Shown here: positions 29,572 through 55,307 of the stretch, one piece after another
Layout of the letters: each line of letters begins with the position of its first letter
How positions within the stretch are numbered: the stretch's first letter is position 1
IMG/VR virus record: IMGVR_UViG_3300010157_000040
Location: 44,698 to 108,697 of that record
Reading direction: 5' to 3' (one strand)
Source of the DNA: a virus
Length of the DNA: 64,000 bases
The notes under the pieces: generated by a model
Told to the model about the DNA's origin: nothing
The model's input: the letters and a program-made list of their open reading frames with translations, nothing else
The model's database searches: none
Translations under genes and position numbers: made by a program

Positions 29572-32500
29572 ATGAAAATTACTTGTTCTTTAAAGCAGTC
29601 TCAAATTGAGAAACTGTATGCAAATATTTATGGGCACCTATTAGATAGTCAAAATAAAGGAAAAACTTTTGACTCTAAAGGATACATGATAAACTTATTT
29701 AATAAGATTGCTACAAAAGGTGATGTAGAAACGGCTGCAAAATTTTTACAACAAGTACCTACATTAATTGGTACTGCATCATTTAGACCATCTTTAGAAG
29801 AATTAGGTTTGCCAACAGATATGTTAAGACCTTTAATTAAAAGTTTTAAGAATGAAGATGCGGGTTTATTAAATGTAGTTAGTTATTTTAATCCTACATT
29901 AAATATTAATGTACAACAAGAATTAATTGATCAATCAGAAAAGAATGCATTTGTTGTACCAGAAAATGATTCTGAAACTGTTACTAAAGATCTGTTTGAT
30001 TATTTACCCTATGACTCTTTTTCTACTACATTTCAAGAATTCTTAACTGTAGATCCAGATAAAGCTGCAACAAATGAACAACTTGATGTAAATAGAAAAG
30101 TTATTTATGCAACACTTAAAGAACTTAAAAAAACTATTGGAACTACACCTAATTTAGGTAAACTTGTATATCAAAATGTTACTTTAAAATTAGTACCACA
30201 AAGACTAGATACTGCTGATACAGATGAGTTAGATAAAACAACAAAAAGATTACAAAATAGATCAGAATTTTTAAATAGAAAAGGTGTAGCTCAACCTAAT
30301 GTAACTAAACCAAATGAAATTTTCTTAATGATAATTTCAAATGAAATAGGTGAACCAGTTTATTTTAATGATGAAGGATCAATTACTACAAAAGAAGAAG
30401 GTGGTAAACAAGTTTATCAATTCTTAAGAGATGCAAGAAAAAAAGGTGATAGATATACAGTAACTGATATTTATGGAAAAGATAATCAGATACTTAATGC
30501 AAAAGAACTTGCAACATTAATGGATAAAAATTCAAAAATTAAATTAAGTAAAGAAGAATTTAATAATTTAGTTGCAGAATTAGATAAAAAACAACAAGAA
30601 GAATTTAAACAGTTATATAACTTTAGACAACGTTTGATTAAAGGTGAAATACCATTAATTAATATAACAGATGTAAGTCAAGGTATAAAAGAATATACCA
30701 ATAAAGAAATTACATTAAGTAATATAAGAAGATATCCGTTTGGTACAGATCATGTATTTAAAACAATACAAACTATTAAGACTCCAAGAGGTCAGTTTAA
30801 AAAAGGTGAAGCAACAATTACTATAGAGGGTCAAGAATTTAAAATTGATAGACCAAACTTGACAGATGATTTAATTAAAAAAATTGCAACAGTATTAACT
30901 GATAAAAATTTAAGTAAAGAACTAAGATATAGATTTTATTCACAATTTTTAGCAAATAAAGCATCTCTTGCAACAAGAAAACATACTTTATCTTATACTC
31001 CTGTTACAGATGAATTGATTTTTTCTTATTCAAAAAAAACATTTCAAGAAGGATACGATAGTAAGTTTACTGATGTTATGTTAGATAGTGATACAGCATA
31101 CACAGAAATATATGATGCATTAAAATTAGCTTCAGGTAAAAATGGTAATTACTTTTCTGCTAAAATGACTTATAATAAAGACTTGTTAAACATTAATGGT
31201 TATCAAGATTATAATTTAGATACAAAAGAATTATCAGAAGATTTTATTCCTTATATTCCATTGCTTGAAACTCTTCCTAATACAAAGGTAGATGCTAGTG
31301 TAACTAGTAATCCAAGATTTTTTAATTCATATATGAAGTTTGCACTTCCAAATGAGTTTACACAACAATTAGAAGAAGCACAAAACAGTTCAAATGATGC
31401 AGAAAAAGATGATTTCTTTGAAACTTTATCCGCACCTTCTGATGTAGAAAATTTAATGCCCAGTGAAAAGAAAAAAGTTATTGTTGATACACTTAAGTCT
31501 GATAAGAAAATAGTAGGAACAATTACTAAACCTTTTGGTTCAGATACTAAATGGAAATTTATTACTGCAAAAGGAACAACAATAGATTTTTATTCTCATA
31601 CAAATAATATTACTGATTTAGATACAGTTGCTCAAGCTAATTTAAACTTACTTCCAGAAGTTGACTTTAATGGAAAAGTAATGACAGATGTTGTTGAGGT
31701 TAGAATAGGAGATAAAGTAATTGGTTATGTAAGAGAAACAGATGACTTTGATAAAGTAAATATTGTTGAACCAACAAAGTCTCAAGAAGAAATTGATGCA
31801 GAAATAGAAGAAAAAATTAATCCTAAAAACACAAGTCATCCATCTGAAGATAGTTTATTTTTTACTAGGTCGGGTGATTTAACTAATAATGTAACAGAAT
31901 CTGAAATTAAAGATGCTCATACATGGTGGGCTAAGTCAGATTTAACTAAACATATTGGTTTTAAAGAAGCAGTAAACATAGTTAATTCTGATGCATATGC
32001 AAGATTTATGACTTATGGTGCTAGACTTAACGGTACATTAGGTACTATAGAAATTGCAAATAAAGGTTCTATGGTTGATGTTTATCATGAAGCATGGCAC
32101 GGATTTTCACAATTGTATTTAACTAGAAAACAAAAAACCTCTTTATACAAAGAAGTAAGAAGAAAATTAGGAAGAAATAAAAAATTATCATTCTTTGAAA
32201 TAGAAGAAATAATTGCTGAAGAATTTAGAGAGTATGCAAAAAATCCTAAACCTAAACCTGATTCACCAGTAAGAAATACTATATTTAGAATAATATTAAA
32301 CTTTTTAAGAGAAGTTTTTGGAAAAGGTAGTGTTACAAATGTTAGAGATATTAAAAAAGTTCAAGAATTATTTGATAATTTATATTTAAACAAAAATCTT
32401 AATAAGTATACTCCTACTATTGATAATGTAATGTTTGATTTATTATATAGAAATAGTGGTATTGTTAAACCAGGAACATTAACTGATCAAGTACTAGATA

Positions 32501-35500
32501 GACAAGATTCTAATCTAATTAAAGATAGTATGGATTCAATAATTTCTGATTTGGTTGATTCTGATAATGGTATCAAAGGAAATAAATCAGGAACTTTGGC
32601 TATACTGCTAGATAGTAGAAATAGAGATGAGTTATATAAACTAATTAATATTAATTTAAATAAATCTTTAAGTCATTATAAATCTACATTAGAAAAACTT
32701 GATGATAAAGATGAAAATAAAAATACTAAAGAAGTTTTAGAAAATAGAGTAAGAATACTTCAAGCAGCTGTAGATAATTATGGAAATTCAAAAAGTGGTG
32801 TTATACAATATCATATAGAAAATAGTACATTTGATTTAATTAAACAAAAATATACAACTCTTGAATTAGATGAAGAAGGTAATTTGTTTGATCCAAATAA
32901 TACTGACAATACAGAAAGATATGGTGATACTAAAGTTGGAGAAAAGTCTTTAATTCAGTTAGCTGGAAAAGAAACACTTTATATTCTTAAAAGTTTACAT
33001 GAAGTTGTTGATGGTAAAATAAAGTATAATGAATTAGGTTATAAAAAATTAGCTCCTTTTAGAACTACCTGGAATAATACTGTAAGAGCAATCAGTGGTC
33101 TACAAGATCCACAAGAAATGTATGATAAATTAGTTGAAGAAAGCAAAGTCAGTCCTGAGTTTAAACAGTTGACAGAAAATAAATTAGCTAATCCGTTAAA
33201 TTCTAAAAATCCAAATGAACAAAAAGCAATAACTTCATTTTGGCAAGATTTTAACAAACCAAGAGTTCCATATATTCAGTTTACAATTTTTAAAAAGACA
33301 GATGAAAATCCAAAGGGATCTTCTGAAGTTACTGAAGCATCAATTGAAACTAAAACTGTTATAAATAAATTTCAAAATAAATTTAAAGCAGATATTAATA
33401 GTGTATATATTAAAAGAATAGGTAAAGAAAACATTCCAACACTTGACATATCTGAGATAGTAAAAGATTTTTCTGATGCAAATGGTAATTTAGATATATC
33501 AAAATCCTATGAGTTTGCAAGAGCTATTGGTTTTTATTTAGATGACATAGGTATAATCAAAAATACATTAAAGAAAGATGAATCTACCATACAACAGTTT
33601 GGTTTACCATACATCTTTAATGCTGTTAAAGTACTTAACCGTAAAGATAAACTACCAGTAAAGAGTGCTTTAGTAAGTAAATGGATTAGTAAATTTAAAA
33701 CTAATCCAATTAAAACATTAACAGAGGCTATACCTGTAGGTGTTATTGGTCCTGATATATTTAAACAAAAAAATAAGGTAGAAGCATTAGCAAGACTACA
33801 AGGAAGATATGGTGTTGACTCATCTAATTTTGGTGTATTTAATGCTGAAAGAAACTTAGTATTTGAACACATAGACAATAACAGTATTACTAAGATAGTT
33901 TATGCATTAAACAATGCTGAAAAATTATCAGATCTTTGGGAATCAGATAAATTTAATTATACTAAGTTTTTAGACCCAAAAATAAATAGTTTTACAAATA
34001 GATCTGGTATACTAAGATCATTATTTGACATGAGAGATCCAAAGAAATCTAAATTAAAAGATAGAGATCTTGAATTATTTATGAATTCTGGTACACAAGT
34101 AGAACAATCTGCAGTAGGTTTAAATACTACATCTTTAGATGTTAATAGTAAAATGCTTCAGGAAATGAATACAATGCTTAAAGGTGGTGTTCAAGAATTT
34201 ATGAGACATGCATCTAAGTCATCTTCATTTGGAGCAAGAATTAATGGAGGTATAGTTGGTAAACCTGGTAAACAAGGTAGTGATGAAAGGTTATGGGTAG
34301 ATATAGATATGTTTGCAAAAAATATAGCACATGACTATGCATTTACAGCACATCTTTTACCATACATGGAATCTGAAGCAGAAAGAATATTTAAGTGTAA
34401 TAGTAATCTTGATACATTTAAAAATTATGTAGGTTATAATAGAGAACTTAGTAATGGTAGAATTGCTGGTCAAGAGTTTACTGCATTTGATAATGTATTA
34501 ACTGATAATACTAAAGAACTTATTTATGCTGCAATTAATAAAGCAATAAAAAATAAAGAGTTGTTTAATCTTGGAACTTTTTTAAAAAATAATCCAACTT
34601 TATTATCTACAGTTAAAAAAGAAACTGCCTTTTATTTTGCAGATCAAACTCGTGAAAATTTATATAAGTTAACAACAAGTAATTATATCAGTCCTAGTCT
34701 TAGAGAAAAATTAAATGTGTTTAATATTACTGAAGATGCACAAGATAAAGTTTTAGTTGATGCTTATACATATAATGCATGGATTCATAATTTTGAAACA
34801 GCAAGTTTATTTTATGGTGACATTGTACAATACAATCATGATAAAGAGGAGATGCATAAAAGAAATACTGGAGCAACTTCTGGTGGTAGAACTTTTAGAA
34901 CTGATATATCTGCACAAAACTTTGCAAATGGATATTTAGCTGATACATCATATGCAAAAAAACATAATGCCACTCCTATTAGTTATAATGGTACTTTTAA
35001 TACTGCTATCATAAAAGATATTGAAAGAACTTCTATATACTATCCAGATTTTGAAAAAGCATTAAGAGAAGATTATACTAAAAGATTTTCTAAAGTACTT
35101 GATAAAAGTAAAGTAGCTGCAGCTGTAGAAGATAGAGTTGCAAAAGAAATTAAGAAGTATAAAGATATGGAAGAAGGTGATGGTCAAGGTTGGATCACAT
35201 TTGATGCATATAGATTATTAAAAACAAATGAAAATAGTTGGTCTAATGCACAAGAAGTATTGTTCCAAAAAATAAATAACAATCAACCAATAGAAGCAAC
35301 AGAAATAACTGAAATGTTTCCTGTTTATAAATTGCAAAACTTTGGTCACTTAGCAAATACAGATTTGTTAGCACCAATAAATGCAATGCATAAATTTGCA
35401 CTTATGCCACTTATTCCTAGTATGATAGAAGGTACTGATTTAGAATCTTTACATCAACAAATGATGTCTAAGAACATTCAGTATTTAACATTTCAAACTG

Positions 35501-38500
35501 GTTCTAAAGTAGGTAGTGTAACTTCTAATGGTAAAGCAGATCAAATATATGATGCTAACTCTGACGAAAAGATTTTAAAAACAGATATTAAATTTACTCC
35601 AAATACTATTTATGTTGATTATTTAAAAAATGTAACTGCTGTTCCATCTAAATTTAAAAACAAAACAGTTTTTTCAACACAGTTGAGAAAATTAATTCTT
35701 AGTAATTTATATGAAAATGGTAAAATCATTAATTCTGATAATACAAAAGCAATAAAAGAATATGAAGCTGCAGTAGATCATCATAGTAATTTATTAAAAT
35801 TAGAATTACTTAATGAAATAGGATACGAGCATGATGTAAAGAATAATAAATATTATGGTAATGTAGATAAATTTTTAGATGTGGTTCAAGCTGAACTTGA
35901 AAAAAGAGATTTACCAGAACATTTAATTCAAATGGTTGGTCTTACTAGAGACAAGTCTTTAAGAACAGATTTATCATTACATTTAAAAGCAGATGAGATA
36001 GAAAAAATTCTTGTTGCTTTAGTTGAAAAAAGATTAATTAAACAAAAAGTTAAAGGTGAAGCATTAGTTCAGGTATCCAGTGCAATGACTAATGGTATAT
36101 GGGATCAAAAAACTAAATTTAAAAATGCTACAGTAGCTGATGTTAAAAAATTCATGGGTAGTAATAACTTACCTTTCTATCATCAAGATGCATCTGGTAA
36201 TACATTAGCTATGAAAGTTGCTATTGCTTTACAAGGTGACTTTGTTAACTTACTTAAACTTAATCATTTAGATGGTCAACCTATAGGTACAAGAGCTAGA
36301 TTAAATGATATGATTAAAGAAGACAAGTGGTTAGACTTAAATGATAATAGAAAGTCTGTTACTTTATCTGCTGTAAGAATACCAGTACAAGGATTAAACT
36401 CTATGGAGTTTATGGAAGTATATGAATTTTTAGATCCAGCTGCAGGAAATATTATTATTCCTCCATCTGAAATTGTTGCTAAATCAGGAGCTGACTTTGA
36501 TGTTGATAAGTTAACTACATTTATGCCACACATAGATTACAAAGGTAATTATGTGAAAGGTCAATTAAGTAATGAGGAGTTACTTAAAAAAGTTAATAAA
36601 CTTAATGAAACTCCAGAAGGTAAAAAACTTGCAACTAATTTAATTAAGTCTCAAAAATCCGCATCTGAAAATAATTTAATAGCAACAATCAGAGGTATAC
36701 TTGAACTAAAAGATAATTTTGCTAGTTTAATTAGACCAAATGATACATATTTATTAAAAGAAATAGCCGATGAGTTACAAGATCATGTAACAGATTACAA
36801 TAGATTTGGAAATGTACATAATGAAAATAGAACAGGACTTAAAAATCAAAAAGTTATTAGTCCTACTAGAGTATTAGAAGCAGGTTATAATTTACATAAA
36901 CATGAAGCCAACATGGTTGGTAAGAGAGTGTTAGGTATTATTGCTGTAGAAAATGCATTACATCCTATCTTTAATGCTATTGGTGCAGCAATGCCTAAAA
37001 CATATAAAGAGTCAAGTTATGTAGGTAACAAGTATATTGATGGTAAAATTGACTATGATACTAGAATACTACTACCTACAAATATGACAAAGGATGGTAG
37101 AATTTCATTGTCTGGAACTGAAACTTCTGATGGTATGGATAACATAGGAGAATTATTTTCTCAAATGTTAAATGGTGCTGTGGATGTTGAAAAAGATGCA
37201 TGGATATTCTTTATTCAAGGTAACTATGAATTAATTCCAATGCTTACATTTTTGTTTAAAGCAGGTGTACCTAAAGAACAAGCAATTATGTTTGTATCAC
37301 AACCACTTGTTAGAGAATATGCAAAACAACAAAGAGAAGTAAAGAGTGCATATGCTACACTTACTGGTGTTGTACCTGAAGATTATAATCCAATGTTTGC
37401 TAAATATACAGCAGCACAAAATACATTAGAAGGTAAGAATCTTAACAGTGTAATTAATAAAGCTACTGCATTAAAAGTTAAAGATGTTTTAAGTTTACAA
37501 GGTGATACAGAAATAAAGTTTGCAGAAAATAAAGTATATAAAACTAAAAAAGCAAGTACTATACTAAAAGAAATTAAAGATGGTACTATAGATCCAACAA
37601 AAATTACCTATATGGTAAATAATGAAACTGGTGAAAAAATATTCAAACCAATTGGAAAACATCCTGTATCTAATGCAAACTTTTATTATACAGCTAAAGC
37701 AGCAACAGAAAATAAAAAAGAATTTTCATTAGAAGAATTAAAGCAAAATGTAGTTGATAATGATAGTACTTCACCACAAGCAATTGCAGCTTTCTTACAT
37801 TTATTAGAAATTGAAAAGTCATCAAAAGGATTCAGTGTATTAAAAATGCAAGCAAATCCGGATACTAAAACATCTAAGACAATTCAAGAAATAATTAAAA
37901 GAAACTTATCACTTGAAGATATTAAAGAATTATCAAAATTAGAACCAGGATTAGTAGACAAATTACAAAAGTCAATACTAGGTACTTTCTTTGATAACAA
38001 ACTAATTAAAGATTTAGTAGTACCAGTATTCCAATTAAGAAATAATGATGTTGTTACTTCAACTATTTTAAAATTACTAGATAAAAACTCAAATTCAATA
38101 GCAGAAAAGTTTGGTAAAGGTCAAGATGGTGCTAGTCAGTTTATTACACAGTTTAAAAATGCAATTCCTAATTACATTTATCAAAACTATATGTCTCACT
38201 TTATTGATAAAGCAGGTAATTTAACTGATACTCCAACTGAATTTAATGAACTTACCGTAAAAAATGTAGCGGGAACTACTAATGGAGCAAAAGTAGTAGG
38301 TAATAATATATATGTAGATACGGAAAGACTAAGAAATGAATTTGAAAATAAACTGTACACAAGAGAAAGTACACTTGAAGGTAACTATAAAGAATCTGGA
38401 TTAAGAGGATTTAAACTTCAAGATGATATGTTCCCTAACTTATCTTCTTATGTAAGATATGTATATGAAAGAGAATATCAAAGACATTTATATCCAATTG

Positions 38501-40395
38501 ATTCTTTAAAAACTAATAAAGATTATTTAAAGTTTAAATCAGATTTTAAATCTGCAGGTGTAGATGAAAGTAAATTAACTGATGTAGCATATGAAGCATA
38601 TCTAAATCAAAGAGCATTAATAAATGCATTTAATAGAGAAGCAATTATGGGTATGGAAGATTATTCATATACTGATATGGTTTTAAATATGGTAGAAGAA
38701 TTTTCTAACTTAAAACATAAGTATCCAATTGTTAATCAATTCACTAAACCTAAAGTTGTTACAAGAAATATACACGGTCAGGTACTTAAAGAAAATTATG
38801 TTTTAACATTAAATGATGTTAAAGAATTAAAAGATGGTCAACTTGCAGAAGTATATTACCAAAATATAAAAGATCTTGGAGATGAAACTGTAAAGAAAGT
38901 ATCTAATATAGAAGATAATAAAAGAATTAGTAAATTATTTAGTCTGTTGCCTATGATGATGATATATCAACATGGTTTAGGATATAGTAAATATGGATTT
39001 AATGAAGCATTACCATATAATGATTTTATAGGTGTAATGCAAACAGCAGCAGATATTTATGAAGATAAAATTCTTAATGAACAATCTTTATATTCTATTT
39101 ATAATTTACTAATGAATGAGAATAATGCAAACTTTAAAGATTATGTTGCACCAAGAGCTAAAGATTATAAAAATCCAGTTGCTAGTGAATTCTCAAATCC
39201 TGTAGTAACAACTGTTGAAGAATTAGATGATAGCATGAGAGCATTATTAATGAAAAATGCTGTTCCTGTAGTACAACCATCTACTAATGTTGAATATAAT
39301 TATAATCCATCAAATGTATCTGAGCAAACAAGAGATGATTATAAACAATATGTATTAAAACAACTTGGAAAACCTGAAATTAAAGCTAAAGCAAATGCAT
39401 TTGATTTTATATATCCAGATTTAACAATTACAATATCTAAAGATGGTTCTCTTAGTTACACAAATGTTAATCAAAAAATTGTAGATTTATCTAAAACAGA
39501 TTCTGGATATGATCTTAAATTTATGGTTGGTTTAAATAAATTAGCTGAAGAGTTTACTCAACCATCTGCTAGTGTTGAAACAGAAGTAGTAATTCCAGGT
39601 GTTGAAATTAAAAGAAATGTTATAACTAAAGAAGAACAACTTGAGTTATTTAATATTCTTAAACCTTATATTGAAAAACAAGGAGCCACAACCAATAAAG
39701 CTACTAGTGCAAATGTAATGATTGGATTAGGTTTAAGATGGGATTATAAATCAAATAATCCTAATTATAAAGCTATTGAAATAAAAAATATTATTGTACC
39801 TGGAAGTAGTGCTAAGTATGGTTATTATGAAGTATCTATTAATGGTCAACCATTAGGTCCTATTAATCCTAGAATTAAAACATTAATGTCTAAAGCTACT
39901 GGTATAGATGCTACTGATTATGATGGGGCTATAATAAATCTTTATACAGATAAAACTTTTATAAGTGCTCATAATGATGTAGATGAAGCTGCTGATGCTA
40001 TTGGATATCCTGTACTTGTTTTAAATATAGGTGGAAGTGGCAATTTTAGTGTACAACAAACTGGAAAATATGAACCTACTCCTCTTAATTCTGGAGACTC
40101 ATATATTTTTGGAATAAATGGAGAAAACAGAAAAGTAATGCATAGAACTTTTCCTTCTAAACAAGATGGATTTTTACCTGCAATAACTACAGCAATAGAT
40201 GGAGAAACTTATTCAAAAGGAAGTTATAGATTATCTATTACTTTAAGAAGAGTAAAAAATCTAAAACCAGGAATGCCTACAGTACCAGCTAAAGTTGTTA
40301 CTCAACCATCTACTAGTGAACCTACAGATATAGTTAAAACAATTAGTCCTAATGGTAAACCACCAATTGAAAGAACATCATCAGATTGTGAATAA
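29572..40395 (+). CDS. Virion-packaged RNA polymerase (crAss-like/phi14:2 gp66 type) with zincin domain and C-terminal AlkB-like domain
   Basis: Catalytic RIPVQG...GADFDVDKL (DxDxD near 36493) and DGQG motif; zincin HEAWH...EEIIAEEF (about 32080-32230); 2OG-Fe(II) motifs INLY, HND, H, RLSITLR (about 39590-40255). Confidence 0.88.
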   Translation: MKITCSLKQSQIEKLYANIYGHLLDSQNKGKTFDSKGYMINLFNKIATKGDVETAAKFLQQVPTLIGTASFRPSLEELGLPTDMLRPLIKSFKNEDAGLLNVVSYFNPTLNINVQQELIDQSEKNAFVVPENDSETVTKDLFDYLPYDSFSTTFQEFLTVDPDKAATNEQLDVNRKVIYATLKELKKTIGTTPNLGKLVYQNVTLKLVPQRLDTADTDELDKTTKRLQNRSEFLNRKGVAQPNVTKPNEIFLMIISNEIGEPVYFNDEGSITTKEEGGKQVYQFLRDARKKGDRYTVTDIYGKDNQILNAKELATLMDKNSKIKLSKEEFNNLVAELDKKQQEEFKQLYNFRQRLIKGEIPLINITDVSQGIKEYTNKEITLSNIRRYPFGTDHVFKTIQTIKTPRGQFKKGEATITIEGQEFKIDRPNLTDDLIKKIATVLTDKNLSKELRYRFYSQFLANKASLATRKHTLSYTPVTDELIFSYSKKTFQEGYDSKFTDVMLDSDTAYTEIYDALKLASGKNGNYFSAKMTYNKDLLNINGYQDYNLDTKELSEDFIPYIPLLETLPNTKVDASVTSNPRFFNSYMKFALPNEFTQQLEEAQNSSNDAEKDDFFETLSAPSDVENLMPSEKKKVIVDTLKSDKKIVGTITKPFGSDTKWKFITAKGTTIDFYSHTNNITDLDTVAQANLNLLPEVDFNGKVMTDVVEVRIGDKVIGYVRETDDFDKVNIVEPTKSQEEIDAEIEEKINPKNTSHPSEDSLFFTRSGDLTNNVTESEIKDAHTWWAKSDLTKHIGFKEAVNIVNSDAYARFMTYGARLNGTLGTIEIANKGSMVDVYHEAWHGFSQLYLTRKQKTSLYKEVRRKLGRNKKLSFFEIEEIIAEEFREYAKNPKPKPDSPVRNTIFRIILNFLREVFGKGSVTNVRDIKKVQELFDNLYLNKNLNKYTPTIDNVMFDLLYRNSGIVKPGTLTDQVLDRQDSNLIKDSMDSIISDLVDSDNGIKGNKSGTLAILLDSRNRDELYKLININLNKSLSHYKSTLEKLDDKDENKNTKEVLENRVRILQAAVDNYGNSKSGVIQYHIENSTFDLIKQKYTTLELDEEGNLFDPNNTDNTERYGDTKVGEKSLIQLAGKETLYILKSLHEVVDGKIKYNELGYKKLAPFRTTWNNTVRAISGLQDPQEMYDKLVEESKVSPEFKQLTENKLANPLNSKNPNEQKAITSFWQDFNKPRVPYIQFTIFKKTDENPKGSSEVTEASIETKTVINKFQNKFKADINSVYIKRIGKENIPTLDISEIVKDFSDANGNLDISKSYEFARAIGFYLDDIGIIKNTLKKDESTIQQFGLPYIFNAVKVLNRKDKLPVKSALVSKWISKFKTNPIKTLTEAIPVGVIGPDIFKQKNKVEALARLQGRYGVDSSNFGVFNAERNLVFEHIDNNSITKIVYALNNAEKLSDLWESDKFNYTKFLDPKINSFTNRSGILRSLFDMRDPKKSKLKDRDLELFMNSGTQVEQSAVGLNTTSLDVNSKMLQEMNTMLKGGVQEFMRHASKSSSFGARINGGIVGKPGKQGSDERLWVDIDMFAKNIAHDYAFTAHLLPYMESEAERIFKCNSNLDTFKNYVGYNRELSNGRIAGQEFTAFDNVLTDNTKELIYAAINKAIKNKELFNLGTFLKNNPTLLSTVKKETAFYFADQTRENLYKLTTSNYISPSLREKLNVFNITEDAQDKVLVDAYTYNAWIHNFETASLFYGDIVQYNHDKEEMHKRNTGATSGGRTFRTDISAQNFANGYLADTSYAKKHNATPISYNGTFNTAIIKDIERTSIYYPDFEKALREDYTKRFSKVLDKSKVAAAVEDRVAKEIKKYKDMEEGDGQGWITFDAYRLLKTNENSWSNAQEVLFQKINNNQPIEATEITEMFPVYKLQNFGHLANTDLLAPINAMHKFALMPLIPSMIEGTDLESLHQQMMSKNIQYLTFQTGSKVGSVTSNGKADQIYDANSDEKILKTDIKFTPNTIYVDYLKNVTAVPSKFKNKTVFSTQLRKLILSNLYENGKIINSDNTKAIKEYEAAVDHHSNLLKLELLNEIGYEHDVKNNKYYGNVDKFLDVVQAELEKRDLPEHLIQMVGLTRDKSLRTDLSLHLKADEIEKILVALVEKRLIKQKVKGEALVQVSSAMTNGIWDQKTKFKNATVADVKKFMGSNNLPFYHQDASGNTLAMKVAIALQGDFVNLLKLNHLDGQPIGTRARLNDMIKEDKWLDLNDNRKSVTLSAVRIPVQGLNSMEFMEVYEFLDPAAGNIIIPPSEIVAKSGADFDVDKLTTFMPHIDYKGNYVKGQLSNEELLKKVNKLNETPEGKKLATNLIKSQKSASENNLIATIRGILELKDNFASLIRPNDTYLLKEIADELQDHVTDYNRFGNVHNENRTGLKNQKVISPTRVLEAGYNLHKHEANMVGKRVLGIIAVENALHPIFNAIGAAMPKTYKESSYVGNKYIDGKIDYDTRILLPTNMTKDGRISLSGTETSDGMDNIGELFSQMLNGAVDVEKDAWIFFIQGNYELIPMLTFLFKAGVPKEQAIMFVSQPLVREYAKQQREVKSAYATLTGVVPEDYNPMFAKYTAAQNTLEGKNLNSVINKATALKVKDVLSLQGDTEIKFAENKVYKTKKASTILKEIKDGTIDPTKITYMVNNETGEKIFKPIGKHPVSNANFYYTAKAATENKKEFSLEELKQNVVDNDSTSPQAIAAFLHLLEIEKSSKGFSVLKMQANPDTKTSKTIQEIIKRNLSLEDIKELSKLEPGLVDKLQKSILGTFFDNKLIKDLVVPVFQLRNNDVVTSTILKLLDKNSNSIAEKFGKGQDGASQFITQFKNAIPNYIYQNYMSHFIDKAGNLTDTPTEFNELTVKNVAGTTNGAKVVGNNIYVDTERLRNEFENKLYTRESTLEGNYKESGLRGFKLQDDMFPNLSSYVRYVYEREYQRHLYPIDSLKTNKDYLKFKSDFKSAGVDESKLTDVAYEAYLNQRALINAFNREAIMGMEDYSYTDMVLNMVEEFSNLKHKYPIVNQFTKPKVVTRNIHGQVLKENYVLTLNDVKELKDGQLAEVYYQNIKDLGDETVKKVSNIEDNKRISKLFSLLPMMMIYQHGLGYSKYGFNEALPYNDFIGVMQTAADIYEDKILNEQSLYSIYNLLMNENNANFKDYVAPRAKDYKNPVASEFSNPVVTTVEELDDSMRALLMKNAVPVVQPSTNVEYNYNPSNVSEQTRDDYKQYVLKQLGKPEIKAKANAFDFIYPDLTITISKDGSLSYTNVNQKIVDLSKTDSGYDLKFMVGLNKLAEEFTQPSASVETEVVIPGVEIKRNVITKEEQLELFNILKPYIEKQGATTNKATSANVMIGLGLRWDYKSNNPNYKAIEIKNIIVPGSSAKYGYYEVSINGQPLGPINPRIKTLMSKATGIDATDYDGAIINLYTDKTFISAHNDVDEAADAIGYPVLVLNIGGSGNFSVQQTGKYEPTPLNSGDSYIFGINGENRKVMHRTFPSKQDGFLPAITTAIDGETYSKGSYRLSITLRRVKNLKPGMPTVPAKVVTQPSTSEPTDIVKTISPNGKPPIERTSSDCE
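39274..40318 (+). repeat. Three in-frame direct repeats CAACCATCT[AG]CTA[AG]TG, cores starting at 39274, 39559 and 40303
   Basis: GTACAACCATCTACTAATGTTGAA / ACTCAACCATCTGCTAGTGTTGAA / ACTCAACCATCTACTAGTGAA; spacings 285 and 744 bp, both multiples of 3. Confidence 0.85.
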
Positions 40396-40426: not shown

Positions 40427-43400
40427 ATGCCTTGTCCTATTAAAATAAAAGAATTTTTAACTAATCAAGTTTTTGAAAAAGGTCAAGCAGGTCTTTTTAT
40501 GAGAAAAGAACTTGCTGATAAATTAGCTGCAGATATTAATGCTGAGTATGATGCTAAAGTTATAAAATTTACTAAGTACTTTGATCACTTAGAAAGAGAA
40601 ATTACTATTCCTCAATCTTTAATTGATGAGTATTATGATGCAGAACTTCAAGAAGAAATTAAAGAAATGAAATCTGCAGAAAGAGAAGCAGAAGAACAAC
40701 AACTACAAGAAGATATAAGAGCAGGTAAAGTATTAGTAGAAAATCTTGATGTAGATACAGATAATAATGATTATAACTTTAATGAAAACTTTACTGAAGA
40801 CTATTACAAAACTAAAGTAATAGAAAATAGAGACTTACAAATTGCTCAAAAACTTGGTGAAAAATATGCTAAAGCATTTAATGTTTCATATTCTATAATT
40901 ACACCAGGAGAAGCAGCAATCTTATTAGAAGATAGTCCAACACCATTTACATCTGATGTATCTTCATTTTTTTATGATAATGCTATTTACTTTATAGAAG
41001 GTAAATTTACTGCAGCATCTGTATTACATGAATTTGCTCACCCATTAGTTAAAGGTATAGCATTTCAAAATCCAAAGTTATTTCAAAATTTGTTTTCACA
41101 GCTCACTAGTACTAATACTGGAATTGATGCATTAACAAAAGTAAAAGATAAGTATCCGGAACTTGATGAGGATTCAGATAGATTTAAAGAAGAAGCAATT
41201 GTTACAGCCATGGAAATGGATGCTGCAATGGAAATTGAAAATGTTAAAAATAATGACAGTGCATTTGCTAAGTTTATACAAAACTTAATTTTTGCAATTA
41301 AAAAAGTTATTAAAGCTTTAACAGGAAATATTAATCTTAAAAACTTATCTACATCAACTACCAGAGATGAGTTAGTTAATATGATGCTTAATGAAGATTT
41401 TCAAATAGAAGATTTAAAATATCAGTTATCATTATTTGCTGAATTTAAAAAAGATACGGAAGATTATATTAAAGAACTTAAAGATACTACACCTAAAAAA
41501 TTAGTTGAAGCAATTAATAAGTTTCATAATGAAATGACTTTCCAAATTGGTGTACTTAAAAATTCTCCTAAAAAACTTAGAGAAGAACTAAAAGGAAAAG
41601 AAGGATTAGATGTATTACGTAATATAAAAGATTATGTAAAAGGTTATAAAACTGCAGGAGAAGATTTAACTGAAGAAGAATTAGAAGAATTATTTAAAAA
41701 TTTAGGTGAAGAACAAGATGACTTAAGAGTACGTTCACTTGCATTTATAAATAGTTTAACTGAGTTAGAAGTTTTTGCAAGAAGAGTACAAACTTTACTA
41801 TCTGATATGAGAAAGTCAGATAAGTTTATGACTTATGATGGTAATGGTAAAATTCAATATTTTAAACAATTCATGGAGAGAGAAGTAAAATTCTTGAATG
41901 AAGTAAGAAGATCACTTGCATTAGATCCTTCTAATGAATTAGTTAAAAAAATATTAGCAATTAAAGCAGTTGTTGAAGATAATGTTGAAAATGCTAAAGA
42001 AATGACATTTGAATTTGTTAAAGGGTTTTTTATGGAAAACAGTATAACAATGCAAAAAAATGTTAAAGAAAAATTAGAAGAAACAATTGATAGAGTTTTA
42101 AAAGCTGAAAAATTTACCCAGGATGACATTGATGTATTTAAAGATGATTTATTTAATAAGTTAGATATAGATAATATTAAAGGAATAAAACAATCAGATT
42201 TTTTATTACCAAGTATTCCTAAAGGAGCAAAATATATTTTATCAGAAATTGGTAATTATAATTCAAACAAAATTACTGAAGAAACAGTAGATAATTATTT
42301 AAGAGGTCATGTAAGAGATTTAGGTATGATGGGATCACTTGCAACTCCTATGGGTAATGTTAATGATATGTTTGGATCTTTTGTAAATTTTATGAAATCT
42401 AAATTATCAAATGCTGAAGTTAAAAGTTTAGATAAACAATATAAGATAGCTGAAGAATTACAACCTTATTTAAATGCTGTTGGAATAAATCATAATGATA
42501 CTAAAGCTATTGCAGATTTAGTATTATTTATTGATACTGTACCAGATACAGATGAACATGGAAATTTTATTGAAAAACAAATCTATGCATATCTTGATAA
42601 ATTTCAAAACTGGAGAGCAGATAGAGGTAAGTTAGAATTTGATTTAGAAAAAGCTAGAACTTTAGGAAAGAAAGATGAAATAAAAGCAGCTATGCAAGCT
42701 CGGTGGGAGTTTGATGAAAAATACATGCAACGGAAGTATGTAGATGCTGTTTATGATGTTAAAAAGATGTGGAGACAAGATAATGTTTTATTAAATCCTG
42801 CAACAGGAAAAGAAATAAAAATATCTGCAAGTACTTCTATTGAAGCATATATGGAAAGACAATCTGCATTAGATGATTTGGCAACATTTAATAGTTCAAA
42901 CTTTACTGAATTAGATGATCTTAATGAATTTACTCCTTCAAAAGCTGCTAAAATTAAATATGATGAATTGTTTAACATGTTTAATTTAAACGGTGAATAT
43001 AAACAAGGTAAAGAATTAGAAAAAGTATTAATAAGAAGAGCATACAGAGAACAGTCTAGAAAATTTAATGAGAGCACTACTAATATTGATAAAGTACAAA
43101 AAGATTTAGATCATTTTGTTAATGTAACTTTAGCTGGTATGGGTATAACTAAAGATTCTGATTCTGCAAAATATGAATCTGAGATTGCTAAGTTTACTAG
43201 TAAAAACTTTAAGATAGCATATACTAATGAATACTTTCAAGAAAGAAATGCAACATTAGATGCTATTAAAAAAATAAATGAAAAAACAAAAGGGTCAGAT
43301 ATTTCTAAACAGTTAGCTAATTTATATGAACAAAGATATAATTTAGTAAATAGAGTAACTGATAAAGATGGAGAACCTAATGGTTTAATGTTAGGTCAAG

Positions 43401-46297
43401 ATCAAATCAAAAGACTTAAAAGTATTGAAGAAGAAATTGTTGCAGCACAAGAACAGTTTGATAGAAAAACTGGTTTATCTAAAGAAGATTCAAATAGATT
43501 AAAATACTTTGAAGAAGAAATAATTGGTAAAGGTAAGTTTAATGAAATGACACCTGAAGATAAAGCTGAATATCAAAATCTATCTAACAATAGAACAGCA
43601 TTTGGTTTGTCTGGTCAAGAAACAACTTATTTAAGAGGTTTATATAGAAAACTTAATGAACTTACTGATACACAAGCAACTGATTATTATATCACTGCAT
43701 TTAATAATGCATTAGGTGATGCTGATGTTCCAATTGCAACAATAGAAACTGCTGATAACTGGATTAATTCAAATGATGTAATGAAAGCAAAAGCTGAAAG
43801 TTCTGCATTTGCTGAATGGTTTGATAGAAATCATTATACTAGACCAAGTTTTGATCAAGAAACCGGAGAGTACATGAATAAGTACTATAGGTTAAAAGCA
43901 TGGACTATAAGTAAACCAAGTGATTCTTCATTTTATAAAAAAACAGAATTAGTTGATCCTACTACTGGTGATAAACTTACAGTAGATGGAGTTCCTATTG
44001 CTAAATATTCATATACTAAAATTAAAGATGAATTTTTTACAGGATATGATGCAAAGACTAAAACTATTAATAAAAAAGTAGGAGTGCATGTAGATAACAG
44101 AGGTAACTTTTTACCTAAGACATTTGCTATTGGAGATGTGAATGATAAATACATGAATAAAAAATATTTTGAACTTCAAAAAGCAAACAATGCACAATAT
44201 AAATTACTTGAAAAATTAAAACAAAATATATTAGATGTACAAGAAGATTCACAATTTGCATCAAGAATGTATTTAGATTTTGCTAGATTTAGAATTGATA
44301 CTAATCTTGAATATTTACAAAAAGGTAAGCTTCAAGAAAGTATAAAAGATAAGAAAAATATTGTATTACAAAATCTAAAGGCTGCTGTTACTGCAGCTAA
44401 AGATGACCCGGAAAGAAGTTTGAATTTTGATAATAAATATTTATTAGTTCCAACAGACTTACAAGGTAAACCAATTGCTAAAGTTCCTATTAGAGGATTA
44501 TTTAATTTAGATATTAATACTGTTTCTACAGATGTGTTTAGATCAATGTTTAATTATATGTATTCAATTGATCAACAAAATGCATTAATAGAAAATGAAC
44601 CATTAGCACAAGCACTACTTAATGTATATAGAGATCCAGATAATGCAATTGATAAATTAGATAGAGCAAGTAAAACTCTTGCAAAAATAGATGATAAAGC
44701 ATCTTCTTTCTTAAAAAGATCTACTAATAAAAGATTACAGTTAGCTGAAGATTTTATTAACAGAACTTTTTATGGTCAAATTACTAGTGAATTTCAACAA
44801 GAAAATGTAATGACAACTAAAATTGCAAAAGGTTTAGTTGGTCAAGCAAGTAGAGCATTTTATGCATTAAACTTACAATCCTCAGTAAAAAATAAATGGG
44901 GAATGACAGTGCAGAAACTTATATATTCTGCAGGTGGAAAATATATTGACTATCCTTCAATGGCAAGAGGTCAAATATCTGCAACAAAAGCAATGTTTGA
45001 ATATGCTGCTAAAGGTGCATATGCAAAAGGAATGAAAAGTTTACCAATGCAAATGATGGATAAGTTTGATATGAATCCAGGAAAAACTAAATCTGAGTTT
45101 GGTAAATCTACTACAAGAACAGCTGTAAAAGATTTATTAGATGGTGCATGGATGTATTCTGATAGAAAATTATTAGAACTAGAAGGAGCATTAGAACTTG
45201 GATTTGCAGTTATGGAAAAACAACTTGTTGATCAAGTACAAGATGATGGTTCAGTAACACAAATAAGATATGCAGATGCATTTGAAACTAATGCAGAAGG
45301 TAAAATGGTGTTAAAGAAAGGTATTGATCCTGAATGGGGAACAGAAGAACTTACTCATACTGTACAAGTAGGGGACACATTAGATTCTATTGCTAAGAAA
45401 TACCATATGACAGCAGAAGAATTAAAATCAAAAAATAAAATTACAGAACTTCCGGAACTAGGTGAAGATATAACAATTTCAACAAATAAGAAATTTAATG
45501 ATGTTAAACTAATCATAGCATCAGTAAATAAAAAACTGAATGGTACAATGACCAACATTGATGGACCAGCAGCTGAAAAGTATTTGTTATATAATCTATT
45601 TAGTTTTTCAAGAAAATATGCCACAGGTATGTTCTTGCAAAGATTTCAAATGGATACTTCTAAAGGTAATAAAGGTAATGAAACATGGGATTGGGACACT
45701 AATGATACAACTAAAGGAACATACATAGAATTCTTACAACTATCAGGTAAATTAATTAAAGGTTTTAGTACATACTGGCCAATTATGAAACCTTCAGAAA
45801 AAGCTGCTGCTAAACAAGTAATTATGGAAGGTATGTTATTATTTCTTATAGGAATGGTAATAACTTATTTATTTGGTTATGATCAAGGTGATGAAGATAG
45901 ATTTGCTAAAATTAAAGCACGTGAAGATAAATATGGTGCTGCAGGATTTATGGCAAACCATTTATTATATCAGTTAATGATGGTAAAGAAAGAAAATCAA
46001 TCTTTTATTCCACTTCCTGGAGTAGGTTTAAATGATTGGTTAAGTTTTGGTAAAGCAACTACAATTGTAATAGGTCCAACATTAGGTGTATATGGAAAAA
46101 TATTTGTTGATCTTGGTCAAATCTTAATTGGTAGTGATAAAGCTACATATAAACAAGATGTTGGTCCATATTCATGGCAAAAACAAGATGTATATAAGAT
46201 TTGGAATCACATAGGTTCATTATTTGGTGTATCAGGTAAGAATGTTAGTCCTTATTGGTCTATCAAGAAGAAAGAGATATTTGAAAACATGAATTAA
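40427..46297 (+). CDS. Giant ejection protein with zincin-like metallopeptidase motif, LysM domain and C-terminal hydrophobic helices
   Basis: VLHEFAHP...EEAIV (about 41020-41200); LysM HTVQVGDTLDSIAKKYHMTAEELKSKN...GEDITI (about 45355-45480); TM-like MLLFLIGMVITYLFG; starts MPCP. Confidence 0.72.
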   Translation: MPCPIKIKEFLTNQVFEKGQAGLFMRKELADKLAADINAEYDAKVIKFTKYFDHLEREITIPQSLIDEYYDAELQEEIKEMKSAEREAEEQQLQEDIRAGKVLVENLDVDTDNNDYNFNENFTEDYYKTKVIENRDLQIAQKLGEKYAKAFNVSYSIITPGEAAILLEDSPTPFTSDVSSFFYDNAIYFIEGKFTAASVLHEFAHPLVKGIAFQNPKLFQNLFSQLTSTNTGIDALTKVKDKYPELDEDSDRFKEEAIVTAMEMDAAMEIENVKNNDSAFAKFIQNLIFAIKKVIKALTGNINLKNLSTSTTRDELVNMMLNEDFQIEDLKYQLSLFAEFKKDTEDYIKELKDTTPKKLVEAINKFHNEMTFQIGVLKNSPKKLREELKGKEGLDVLRNIKDYVKGYKTAGEDLTEEELEELFKNLGEEQDDLRVRSLAFINSLTELEVFARRVQTLLSDMRKSDKFMTYDGNGKIQYFKQFMEREVKFLNEVRRSLALDPSNELVKKILAIKAVVEDNVENAKEMTFEFVKGFFMENSITMQKNVKEKLEETIDRVLKAEKFTQDDIDVFKDDLFNKLDIDNIKGIKQSDFLLPSIPKGAKYILSEIGNYNSNKITEETVDNYLRGHVRDLGMMGSLATPMGNVNDMFGSFVNFMKSKLSNAEVKSLDKQYKIAEELQPYLNAVGINHNDTKAIADLVLFIDTVPDTDEHGNFIEKQIYAYLDKFQNWRADRGKLEFDLEKARTLGKKDEIKAAMQARWEFDEKYMQRKYVDAVYDVKKMWRQDNVLLNPATGKEIKISASTSIEAYMERQSALDDLATFNSSNFTELDDLNEFTPSKAAKIKYDELFNMFNLNGEYKQGKELEKVLIRRAYREQSRKFNESTTNIDKVQKDLDHFVNVTLAGMGITKDSDSAKYESEIAKFTSKNFKIAYTNEYFQERNATLDAIKKINEKTKGSDISKQLANLYEQRYNLVNRVTDKDGEPNGLMLGQDQIKRLKSIEEEIVAAQEQFDRKTGLSKEDSNRLKYFEEEIIGKGKFNEMTPEDKAEYQNLSNNRTAFGLSGQETTYLRGLYRKLNELTDTQATDYYITAFNNALGDADVPIATIETADNWINSNDVMKAKAESSAFAEWFDRNHYTRPSFDQETGEYMNKYYRLKAWTISKPSDSSFYKKTELVDPTTGDKLTVDGVPIAKYSYTKIKDEFFTGYDAKTKTINKKVGVHVDNRGNFLPKTFAIGDVNDKYMNKKYFELQKANNAQYKLLEKLKQNILDVQEDSQFASRMYLDFARFRIDTNLEYLQKGKLQESIKDKKNIVLQNLKAAVTAAKDDPERSLNFDNKYLLVPTDLQGKPIAKVPIRGLFNLDINTVSTDVFRSMFNYMYSIDQQNALIENEPLAQALLNVYRDPDNAIDKLDRASKTLAKIDDKASSFLKRSTNKRLQLAEDFINRTFYGQITSEFQQENVMTTKIAKGLVGQASRAFYALNLQSSVKNKWGMTVQKLIYSAGGKYIDYPSMARGQISATKAMFEYAAKGAYAKGMKSLPMQMMDKFDMNPGKTKSEFGKSTTRTAVKDLLDGAWMYSDRKLLELEGALELGFAVMEKQLVDQVQDDGSVTQIRYADAFETNAEGKMVLKKGIDPEWGTEELTHTVQVGDTLDSIAKKYHMTAEELKSKNKITELPELGEDITISTNKKFNDVKLIIASVNKKLNGTMTNIDGPAAEKYLLYNLFSFSRKYATGMFLQRFQMDTSKGNKGNETWDWDTNDTTKGTYIEFLQLSGKLIKGFSTYWPIMKPSEKAAAKQVIMEGMLLFLIGMVITYLFGYDQGDEDRFAKIKAREDKYGAAGFMANHLLYQLMMVKKENQSFIPLPGVGLNDWLSFGKATTIVIGPTLGVYGKIFVDLGQILIGSDKATYKQDVGPYSWQKQDVYKIWNHIGSLFGVSGKNVSPYWSIKKKEIFENMN

Positions 46298-50545: not shown

Positions 50546-51565
50546 TTACAATTTTACATTACCAATAGCTAGTTCATATGGAAGTGTGTAATCTTTGTTT
50601 AAATAGTGATAACTTATTGTATCTTCTATATTTTCAAAATCAAAACCCCATATCTCTAGACTTTCTTTAGAGACTTGGAATGGGTATACTTGGTTGTATT
50701 TATCTATTACAATAAATGTTACAACTATATCCCAATCTATAGCATCTGGTAAATCTTTGATAAACTTTACATATGCCATCTTTTTATACATAGTGGCTTG
50801 AATCCAATATTTATAATATTTAACAGCATCAGGAAAATCTATTAAATTTTTACCTGTGGTTTTAAGGTCATTAATAAATATTGTTTTAGATTCTCTATCT
50901 ATCACAACATTATCAAGAAATCCTTTATAACCAAATGGAAGATTTTCAATATCAACTTGTAATGGCAACTCATTATAAACTGATAAATGTTTATCTTCTG
51001 CAGTCATGTCAAGTTGTAGTAATGCTCTAACTGATGTATCCATCTTTAAAACTTCAACACTTTCCTTGCAACCACTCAAGGTGTCTTGATCTACTACAGT
51101 CTTTCCTTGACTGTTTTTAAGAAAACTAAAATAGTCTTTGTGGTCCTCTGTCAGAATTTTTGCAAGTCTTTGCTCATCTGTTTTTAAGGATTGATGTAAG
51201 TTAACTGTAAGTAGATGTGTAAGTATTTCTTGAGAGTAGTCCTCCAAAGATAGTGTATCATTTTGTAATGTGCAATGATATTTAAAAATATTATGCAACA
51301 ATTTTAAATTACTATCACTTGGATTTTTTGCATTCATTGTAATAAAGTCTCTATCATAATTATCAGGTTCAAGTAATAAACAGTGTAAGACACGCCCTGT
51401 TACCAGATGCGCATCTATACTGTCTTCTTTTTGATTAAGTACATAATGACTGTAAAAAGCTCTAGGTGAGAATAACAACTTATTAATGCTGCTATAACTA
51501 AAGTAAAACTTTTTATTATAAAATTGTTTTAGTTCATCAGAACCAGTCAATGTCTGTAGATTCAT
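50546..51565 (-). CDS. PD-(D/E)xK exonuclease (RecE/exonuclease VIII-like)
   Basis: FSYSSIN; G..LHCLLLEP; KGFLD...INDLKTT; YWIQATMY. Confidence 0.8.
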   Translation of the reverse strand: MNLQTLTGSDELKQFYNKKFYFSYSSINKLLFSPRAFYSHYVLNQKEDSIDAHLVTGRVLHCLLLEPDNYDRDFITMNAKNPSDSNLKLLHNIFKYHCTLQNDTLSLEDYSQEILTHLLTVNLHQSLKTDEQRLAKILTEDHKDYFSFLKNSQGKTVVDQDTLSGCKESVEVLKMDTSVRALLQLDMTAEDKHLSVYNELPLQVDIENLPFGYKGFLDNVVIDRESKTIFINDLKTTGKNLIDFPDAVKYYKYWIQATMYKKMAYVKFIKDLPDAIDWDIVVTFIVIDKYNQVYPFQVSKESLEIWGFDFENIEDTISYHYLNKDYTLPYELAIGNVKL

Positions 51566-54119: not shown

Positions 54120-55307
54120 TTATAGTTCTAACTTAATTACTTTTCCAGGAAGACCAGGATTCATTTCCGATCTCTCTGATATAACCCAAAGGACATTACC
54201 TTTTGGTTTTACACTTGCACTACATTCTCCATCAGTAAAATATACTAGGCTTGTATATTTCTTGTTATTATTATTATAATATTCTAAGACAGGATCAAAT
54301 TCAGTTCCTCCTCTACCGTGTACTTCAAGATCACTTTTACCTCTATAAGGTTCTACTGATCTTATACTTGTGTCACACTGAACTATAGTGACATCTACTC
54401 CTGCTTTATAAATATGATGAATTTCATTCATAAACTCAATTAGTTCTGTATCACTTACAGAACCTGAGGTATCTATACCTAATAACATATGTTGTTTCAT
54501 CTTGATCTTAAGACCAGGATTACCATCATACCTTTTATTCTCCTTTCTACGGATCTTCTTGGTAAATACTTTTGTACTAATACCAGTAAATCTTCTCATA
54601 TATCCTCTCCAATCAAACTTAGGTGGTAGAATTTCTTCTATAATAATTTTTCCATCTATTTCTCCAGGAACATTACCTCTTTTCTTAACAGTTTGTTCTT
54701 TAGCATCTGATAAAACTTTCTGTAATTGTTTTTCAATTAACTTTTGCTCAGCTTCAGTAAGATCTTCAAAGTCTGACCATGTACTATGATCAGGTAAACC
54801 TTCTCCATCTCCATCCATGCTGTCACATAGCTTATCAAAGTTTTCATCTCCAGATGTACCATTCTTATCTTTTTCATCTTTAGCTTGTGATAGTTTATCA
54901 TAATAATATCTAGCACCTGCTTTTCTGTCAAGATTAAGATCTTCATAGTCATTTATATCTATACCACCTTCTGGTAACCAATCTTCATCAATATATTGGT
55001 TAATTTCCATATCCATTGCTATGTTAGCCATCTTGTGATTACTAAACTTAAAATAAGTAGTAAGATGTCCAAATGCAATGTGAAGTAATTCATGTTTAAG
55101 TAGACCAAGTTTATGATCTTCACTTAGACCCATCCAGAATTCTTCATTAATACATAGTTGGTAGTTAATACCATTTTTGCTTACACCAGCAGTTGGAACT
55201 TTTTTACTGTCCCATAATTTATTTAGCATTAGTAGAAAGAACCCATAATAGGGCTCTTTTAACATTAATTCTTTTGCTGTCTTACTAAGACTTTGTGCTT
55301 TGTCCAT
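54120..55307 (-). CDS. Metallopeptidase-VWA protein (DUF2201-like)
   Basis: HELLH...NIAMDMEIN; MIDAS DTSGS; GRGGT.F; YFTDG. Confidence 0.88.
   Translation of the reverse strand: MDKAQSLSKTAKELMLKEPYYGFFLLMLNKLWDSKKVPTAGVSKNGINYQLCINEEFWMGLSEDHKLGLLKHELLHIAFGHLTTYFKFSNHKMANIAMDMEINQYIDEDWLPEGGIDINDYEDLNLDRKAGARYYYDKLSQAKDEKDKNGTSGDENFDKLCDSMDGDGEGLPDHSTWSDFEDLTEAEQKLIEKQLQKVLSDAKEQTVKKRGNVPGEIDGKIIIEEILPPKFDWRGYMRRFTGISTKVFTKKIRRKENKRYDGNPGLKIKMKQHMLLGIDTSGSVSDTELIEFMNEIHHIYKAGVDVTIVQCDTSIRSVEPYRGKSDLEVHGRGGTEFDPVLEYYNNNNKKYTSLVYFTDGECSASVKPKGNVLWVISERSEMNPGLPGKVIKLEL

Follow-up and report, generated by a model that had tools for sequence, protein, structure and literature searches.

Can a phage exchange whole domains of one of its largest proteins without breaking the protein, and is the site of exchange written in its DNA? 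The question is raised by a 64,000-nucleotide (nt) window, the whole stretch of DNA that was analysed, taken from a 108.7-kb IMG/VR virus record judged 91% complete (IMGVR_UViG_3300010157_000040, positions 44,698 to 108,697 of that record); all positions below are those of the window. It contains the gene of a putative crAss-type virion RNA polymerase (RNAP), P0001, which ends in an array of three direct copies of a short repeat, here called the joint, separating two add-on units from the polymerase core and from a short C-terminal cap. Our analysis indicates that the joint is probably an in-frame short-homology recombination site at which domains of a polymerase that is probably injected into the host are shuffled. 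The gene and its array comprise the following features:

29572–40395, plus strand: crAss-type virion RNA polymerase gene P0001 (putative), one open reading frame (ORF) of 3607 amino acids (aa), a polyvalent protein.
39271–39291, plus strand: joint copy m1, VQPSTNV, GTACAACCATCTACTAATGTT, four mismatches to the 21-nt consensus.
39292–39555, plus strand: cassette unit 1, an 88-aa domain of unknown function, 85–99% identical in unrelated backbones and joint-flanked there.
39556–39576, plus strand: joint copy m2, TQPSASV, ACTCAACCATCTGCTAGTGTT, one mismatch, left breakpoint of the high-identity AlkB cassette.
39577–40299, plus strand: AlkB cassette, predicted 2-oxoglutarate (2OG)-Fe(II) dioxygenase (PF13532, E 6e-14; Pfam domain at about 39601–40248).
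40300–40317, plus strand: joint copy m3, TQPSTS, ACTCAACCATCTACTAGTG, with consensus identity reaching 40318 and two mismatches to the family consensus that amount to loss of a GTT codon, right breakpoint of the AlkB cassette.
40318–40392, plus strand: conserved 25-aa C-terminal cap, ...IERTSSDCE, with a penultimate Cys, 100% identical in the cassette-less relative P0026.

The array runs from the core through m1, the 88-aa domain, m2, the AlkB dioxygenase and m3 to the cap, with all three joint copies in the frame of the ORF and spaced by 285 and 744 nt. The consensus joint is the 21-mer ACTCAACCATCTACTAGTGTT, encoding TQPSTSV, or 23 nt with the preceding CT. The 16-nt core CAACCATCTRCTARTG, with up to two mismatches allowed, occurred three times in the window against 0.19 expected, a count reached in 0 of 100 shuffles; the motif scan found no further copy and no stored cassettes anywhere else in the 108.7-kb genome.

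The AlkB unit matched the 2OG-FeII_Oxy_2 profile over its full length (positions 1–194 of 194; 53.1 bits against a cut-off of 31.2), and its iron-binding residues, HND and the distal His of VMHRT, aligned with those of the solved AlkB-family enzyme 5xeg, identifying it as a predicted AlkB-type 2OG-Fe(II) dioxygenase. Its codon usage is foreign to the polymerase core: Ala is encoded by GCT in 11 of 15 cases versus 60 of 182 in the core (Fisher p=0.0035), Gly by GGA in 13 of 22 versus 44 of 157 (p=0.006), and its overall codon-usage distance exceeded that of every 240-codon window of the core. Unit 1 gave nothing significant in Pfam, PHROGs, the ESM Atlas, or Foldseek searches against PDB and BFVD, and its AlphaFold2 model was compact (a helix, four strands and two helices; predicted local distance difference test score 82). 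The original prediction, made from the letters alone, had described three in-frame direct repeats that cut the tail into a 285-bp unit with a domain of about 90 aa and no known family, a 744-bp unit with a complete AlkB domain of foreign codon usage, and a short cap ending in DCE; each of these elements was recovered.

A search with the tail gathered 167 giant proteins of 2000–5900 aa. Among the 120 of them that were listed, AlkB was present in nearly all, and the additional domains varied (SF1 helicases, NADAR, DUF7831, RNase H, ART-PolyVal and SLOG). The polymerase tail had no match among INPHARED phages by blastn or tblastn, and the core just upstream of m1 retrieved only three related loci as a query, too few for a census. 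Related caps (GLPGI.RTS.DC[EQ]) were found in P0003, P0004, P0006, L004 and L021.

Gain or loss is seen in P0026, which aligned with P0001 over 3241 aa at 95% identity, interrupted by one gap, and was exactly 343 aa shorter, corresponding to the 285 plus 744 nt of the array. Its tail reads core, QPSTSVE, cap, with one motif copy at the junction; two near-isogenic polymerases therefore differ by precisely the joint-bounded block. Other relatives showed different arrangements: P0003 and L005 carry an extra DUF7831 unit with a motif copy on each side; P0004 has the core, a decayed motif, the same AlkB, a different HExxH domain and the cap; and P0006 has unit 1 (93% identical), a distant AlkB (37%) and the cap, joined by decayed linkers. 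In P0118, unit 1 (96%) lies between two motif copies in a protein that also contains ART-PolyVal and a helicase. A second HExxH domain (HEILHAL), with no Pfam match, was located after AlkB and before the cap in P0003, P0004 and L005:4619-6769.

Exchange at the joint is indicated by the comparison with L004 and L005, two phages whose backbones are 70–73% identical to that of the window. The AlkB segment (39547–40318) showed nucleotide identities of 97–97.9% to L004 and 94–94.7% to L005, whereas the polymerase core and the downstream gene of these two loci were 66–74% identical to the window. At four-fold sites the identities were 94.6% and 82.6% for the AlkB cassette and 49–55% for the backbone, so protein-level constraint cannot account for the identity of the cassette. 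The alignments were unrelated up to ACTCAACC, where identity started, and it stopped right after ACTAGTG. These comparisons point to a recent transfer of the AlkB cassette with breakpoints on the motif.

Unit 1 was re-used in at least eight other backbones, and in the six with the most conserved unit 1 the motif, sometimes worn, was present on both sides. Its identity was 93–98% in backbones whose alignable core regions were 35–66% identical, and AlkB was 93–96% identical in backbones of 25–64% identity; the two cassettes have separate histories. In other phages AlkB, DUF7831, ART-PolyVal and cpYpsA-SLOG lie between motif copies or begin just after one. Joint-to-joint segments in this limited sample fell into about 16 sequence families, an approximate count, as single-linkage clustering chained some multi-cassette segments. 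The proposal in the original prediction that the repeat lets the phage add, swap or drop domains is supported by addition or loss in P0026, by swaps in L004/L005 and P0003–P0006, and by the re-use of unit 1; the relatives do not share one constant pair and order of domains, and the repeat delimits the domains that vary.

To evaluate the conservation of the joint itself, we scanned IMG/VR with ACNCARCCNTCNACNAGYGT, which matches every codon choice for TQPSTSV provided that TCN encodes the first Ser and AGY the second. Of its 114 matches, about half lay in short ORFs or in GC-rich contigs with scattered codons and represent chance background, and the remainder belonged to AT-rich phages and fell within long ORFs, the longest of 4260 aa. 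When ORFs of 300 aa or more were considered, there were 52 unique contexts, and the exact 21-mer was present in 43 of them, compared with about one expected from the codon usage of each ORF; a check of synonymous sites against codon usage had been proposed with the prediction, and it came out in favour of conservation at the DNA level. Alignment of 47 distinct contexts with unrelated flanks revealed a sharp-edged conserved block of 23 nt, CT plus the 21-mer. Two half-anchored scans, each fixing one half of the motif and leaving the other free of coding assumptions, yielded 43 exact copies and, among variant contexts, 30 non-synonymous against two synonymous-only changes, whereas about a quarter of variants would be expected to be synonymous-only without coding constraint. 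As the variants are mostly non-synonymous, the conserved unit is the DNA and not the peptide, and both the motif and its variants travel as DNA segments. The commonest variant, ACTCAATCATCT.../ACTCAATCATCTACTAGTGTT (TQSSTSV), was itself codon-fixed in 10 distinct contexts; its carriers include L035, L061, L110, L112, L337, L149, L214, L245 and L252, as if a second joint allele were spreading.

The protein that carries the array was assigned from two motifs and from its relatives:

32086–32100, plus strand: zincin-like metallopeptidase motif HEAWH (aa 839–843), a sequence motif only.
36493–36507, plus strand: catalytic-type motif DFDVD (aa 2308–2312), which fits the DFDxD of crAss-like virion RNAPs.

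DFDxD is the defining motif of the large virion-packaged crAss-like RNAP (bioRxiv 10.1101/2020.03.07.982082) and was found in 101 of 121 related giant proteins. A tblastn search with aa 2000–2700 of P0001 against INPHARED returned 81 records, all crAss-like, at 21–27% identity and E values down to 2e-12; some of these, at 22–25% identity, are annotated as RNAP, including the 'putative RNAP catalytic subunit' of crAss002. The protein had no match among all PDB chains by phmmer, and the whole protein had none in PHROGs. Its gene belongs to a series of giant genes on the plus strand in which virion, tail-fibre, nuclease and LysM/transglycosylase signatures occur; a minus-strand replication module follows. 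Because of the DFDVD motif, the similarity to crAss-like RNAPs and the giant virion-type gene context, it is reasonable to regard P0001 as a virion RNAP, and by homology to crAss-like virion RNAPs it is probably injected into the host. P0001 combines RNAP, HExxH and AlkB, to which helicase, NADAR, ART-PolyVal, RNase H, SLOG and DUF7831 are added in its relatives; as Iyer 2017 uses the term, P0001 is a polyvalent protein, being very large and bearing several unrelated effector-type domains that vary among relatives. A zincin (MPTase) domain on virion RNAPs has been described among polyvalent proteins (PMC5512222).

Most arrays lie about 700–1500 aa downstream of DFDxD. In L071:1426-4425 and L035:5013-8012, two to four joint copies spaced 150–160 aa apart were found upstream of both HExxH and DFDxD, showing that cassette arrays are not limited to the C-terminal tail; the units of these upstream arrays had no Pfam match.

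Several other explanations of the joint were considered. The original prediction had itself cautioned that the repeat could be selected as a peptide linker or cleavage site, that is, that TQPSTSV is kept as a flexible linker or as a protease site freeing the cargo, with DNA identity resulting from codon bias and common descent. The peptide is Ser/Thr/Pro-rich and linker-like, looser TQPT/TQxx linkers flank AlkB in distant relatives, the same protein has the zincin-like HEAWH motif, and some polyvalent proteins are processed (PMC5512222). However, N4 virion RNAP is packaged unprocessed (PMC5512222), all seven synonymous sites of the joint are fixed in the 43 exact contexts, and common descent of a region cannot explain the DNA identity because the flanks are unrelated. 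Peptide-level selection is also disfavoured by the split of 30 to two among variants, since purifying selection on the peptide predicts the opposite pattern, and we consider this caveat very unlikely to hold. Even less credence can be given to a signal acting at the level of RNA or transcription (a pause, processing site or internal start) that happens to lie between domains. Conservation at the nucleotide level would suit such a signal, but the block was confined to one gene, where it lay in frame at domain borders, and was absent between genes, it has no conserved flanking structure, and the mosaic breakpoints and the presence/absence polymorphism would be left unexplained.

All of the data are metagenome assemblies, and the length of the shared block is close to that of the smallest k-mers in widely used assemblers, so the mosaics could in principle be chimeras in which different phages were joined at a shared 21–23-mer. 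This is hardly credible, as the same architectures recur in independent sources: P0003 is from ENA and L005 from IMG/VR, and P0004, P0005 and P0006 are from JGI, ENA and NCBI. Furthermore, the architectures without exception retain the reading frame and the C-terminal cap, m2 of the window shares only 12 uninterrupted bases with the L004 and L005 copies, which is too short for a k-mer join, and the order of unit 1, AlkB and cap is also found in the diverged P0006, in which the linkers have decayed. A further alternative is that a dedicated recombinase or homing-type nuclease recognises the 23-nt block and moves the cassettes, as in a true intragenic integron. The fixed length, sharp edges and near-perfect conservation of the block in 47 unrelated contexts would fit such an enzyme, as would the spread of site variant 'alleles' as units, and direct copies flank the cassettes as they would after Campbell-type insertion, with one copy at the empty site. 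Three genes of the window bear on the question of machinery:

58921–59643, minus strand: Sak4-like single-stranded-DNA-annealing protein (phrog_124, E 3.7e-26), candidate recombination machinery, with a putative link to the joint.
50546–51565, minus strand: exonuclease VIII-like nuclease (phrog_412, E 2.7e-21), candidate partner of the annealing protein, with a link that is likewise putative.
54120–55307: HNH-type endonuclease gene.

The HNH gene is a candidate for a dedicated enzyme but has no demonstrated link to the site. The hypothesis of an integrase or resolvase was rejected, as no tyrosine or serine recombinase (PF00589, PF00239) was matched in the 91%-complete genome, while control genomes were positive. 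On inspection the 21-mer has no dyad symmetry, the 23-nt block has no conserved flanks, and the site is confined to the polymerase gene (three copies in the genome), with neither free cassettes nor circles seen; overall, a dedicated recombinase or homing nuclease of this kind seems unlikely. As another candidate, the SpeI-type ACTAGT inside the joint was considered as a nuclease target and rejected, since it occurred 21 times in the window against 21 expected.

Recombination by short homology, the reading that we favour, would work as follows. A group of AT-rich crAss-like phages keeps the joint between the RNAP core, each add-on domain and the C-terminal cap, with all copies alike in sequence and in reading phase. 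When any two of them recombine, within one genome or between co-infecting relatives, whole domains would be deleted, inserted or replaced, and each exchange would yield an intact protein with its cap because every joint is in the same phase. The exchanges would be carried out by short-homology general recombination, through an annealing protein and an exonuclease or through host functions, and not by a dedicated site-specific enzyme. The perfection of the joint may result from turnover, with cassettes that have intact joints continuing to move and worn joints becoming frozen; frozen joints of this kind would include m1 of the window and, in P0004 and P0006, the decayed linkers. The polymerase and its cassettes would be ejected into the host, where the cassettes may act as early effectors, AlkB for example by removing alkyl or methyl marks from nucleic acid.

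A number of observations weigh against this interpretation. No recombination event has been directly observed, and P0026 is known only as a protein, so that its empty site is seen at the protein level and not in DNA. A homologue of the Sak4-like protein was found in only seven of 19 related genomes, several complete joint-bearing genomes lack one, and dependence on Sak4 was rejected as there was no clean association. Lengths of 21–23 nt are at the lower limit of homology for efficient general recombination, and exchange would therefore be rare unless helped; the letter-perfect upkeep of the joint lacks a mechanistic explanation. None of the copies in the window is a perfect 21-mer, and with 4, 1 and 2 mismatches in m1, m2 and m3, the array may be partly frozen. 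Most AlkB-bearing relatives have looser linkers of the TQPT/TQxx type and not the exact joint. In P0007–P0122, which are without the exact joint, AlkB is mostly preceded by ...N.PK and followed by linkers of the TQPT, TQxx or TEPT type; these looser linkers could represent older or alternative forms of the joint.

The short homology, the distribution of Sak4 and the lack of an observed recombinant molecule leave room for a dedicated enzyme. In a bolder proposal, possible though doubtful, the 23-nt block would serve as the address for a dedicated system, which could be an unrecognised sequence-specific nuclease or recombinase or a tuned annealing protein. Cassettes would be actively loaded and unloaded by this system, perhaps by way of excised circles, on a protein that is injected before the genome; the array would then be selected for evolvability and would be a true intragenic integron.

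Comparison with known systems places the short-homology joint among repeat-mediated modular exchanges. It shows a short flanking repeat, coincident breakpoints and, at the protein level, a repeat-bounded insertion/deletion between near-identical polymerases. PeSL shuffling in T4-type phages (Arbiol et al. 2010, PMC2839356; PMC4122927) likewise involves short conserved repeats that flank non-essential modules, with recombination inserting, deleting and replacing modules among close relatives, and exchanges between nearby copies produce mini-circles (PMC2839356). However, PeSLs are intergenic promoter-terminator cassettes that move whole genes, whereas the joint lies in frame inside a gene, is not known to have a regulatory role and moves domains of a protein. 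In PMC3157838, citing Tetart 1996 and 1998, the adhesins of T-even tail fibres are described as exchanging at conserved motifs, the glycine-rich motifs of gp38; the joint differs in that its peptide shows no constraint beyond the DNA and in that what is swapped is an entire enzyme domain for an unrelated one.

Polymorphic toxins (the VENN motif of CdiA, and Rhs; PMC7662968) also have a conserved motif that bounds a swappable C-terminal effector on a delivered giant protein, with shared sequence allowing cassette recombination. These are bacterial and carry one terminal toxin with an immunity gene and orphan modules stored downstream, whereas in the phage several cassettes stand in tandem and are followed by a conserved cap, immunity genes are absent, and the genome contains no orphans. 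Polyvalent proteins (Iyer, Burroughs, Anand, de Souza, Aravind 2017; PMC5512222) are giant virion-delivered proteins with many effector domains on a core such as a zincin-bearing virion RNAP; ART-PolyVal, NADAR, SF1 helicase and SLOG from this repertoire occur in tails of the P0001 family, and 'recombinational variability' was raised there as a possibility. In contrast, the text of that paper makes no reference to linkers, AlkB or crAss phages, and a codon-fixed joint at domain borders with mapped breakpoints is not described. The crAss-like virion RNAP of Cellulophaga phage phi14:2, gp66 (bioRxiv 10.1101/2020.03.07.982082), is a large virion-packaged protein with DFDxD to which P0001 shows weak but significant similarity; P0001 differs in its 3607 aa, its cassette tail and the lack of a detectable sequence match to any solved chain.

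With integrons, to which the repeat had originally been likened, the array shares a logic: a promoter-less cassette array bounded by a repeated site, one upstream signal, and gain, loss and reshuffling. The likeness holds as an analogy only, as no IntI-type recombinase was matched in the 91%-complete genome, the site is a 23-nt unstructured direct repeat without the symmetry of a folded attC, and the units are in-frame domains and not genes. What is new is an intragenic, in-frame, codon-fixed joint that is common to many phages and moves whole enzyme domains; a literature search found no paper on TQPSTSV or on such a joint.

Further observations concern the surroundings of the polymerase gene. 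The neighbouring giant proteins (23673–29570 and 40427–46297) contain an exonuclease-like segment (phrog_298, aa 1587–1665) and a LysM/transglycosylase-like segment (aa 1639–1724), which fit ejected proteins with enzyme modules of their own. In the three giant ORFs of the region 23673–46297, cysteines are nearly restricted to the termini: those of the 1965-aa protein, whose C-terminus is DIDCK, are residues 1143 and 1964, the polymerase has Cys at 5, 1609 and 3606, starting with MKITC and ending with SSDCE, and the sole Cys of the 1956-aa protein is at position 3 (MPCP). Many related polymerases have a Cys among their last few residues, and a terminal Cys could explain why cassettes are inserted before the conserved cap instead of being added after it. 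In the whole window the palindrome ATCGAT was absent against 21 expected, and ATGCAT was over-represented (61 against 21 expected), which may reflect avoidance of restriction sites.

If the joint acts as proposed, a protein that is probably delivered into the host along with the DNA can be re-equipped by the phage while the core and the cap stay undisturbed. The 21-mer would provide a simple sequence handle for harvesting candidate early-acting or counter-defence domains from metagenomes, many of them without a known family, and the joint would represent a natural design for modular protein engineering in crAss-like phages. It would also be a rare case of a coding sequence conserved as DNA and not as peptide, in which selection on recombination potential, or the selfish spread of cassettes, becomes directly testable.

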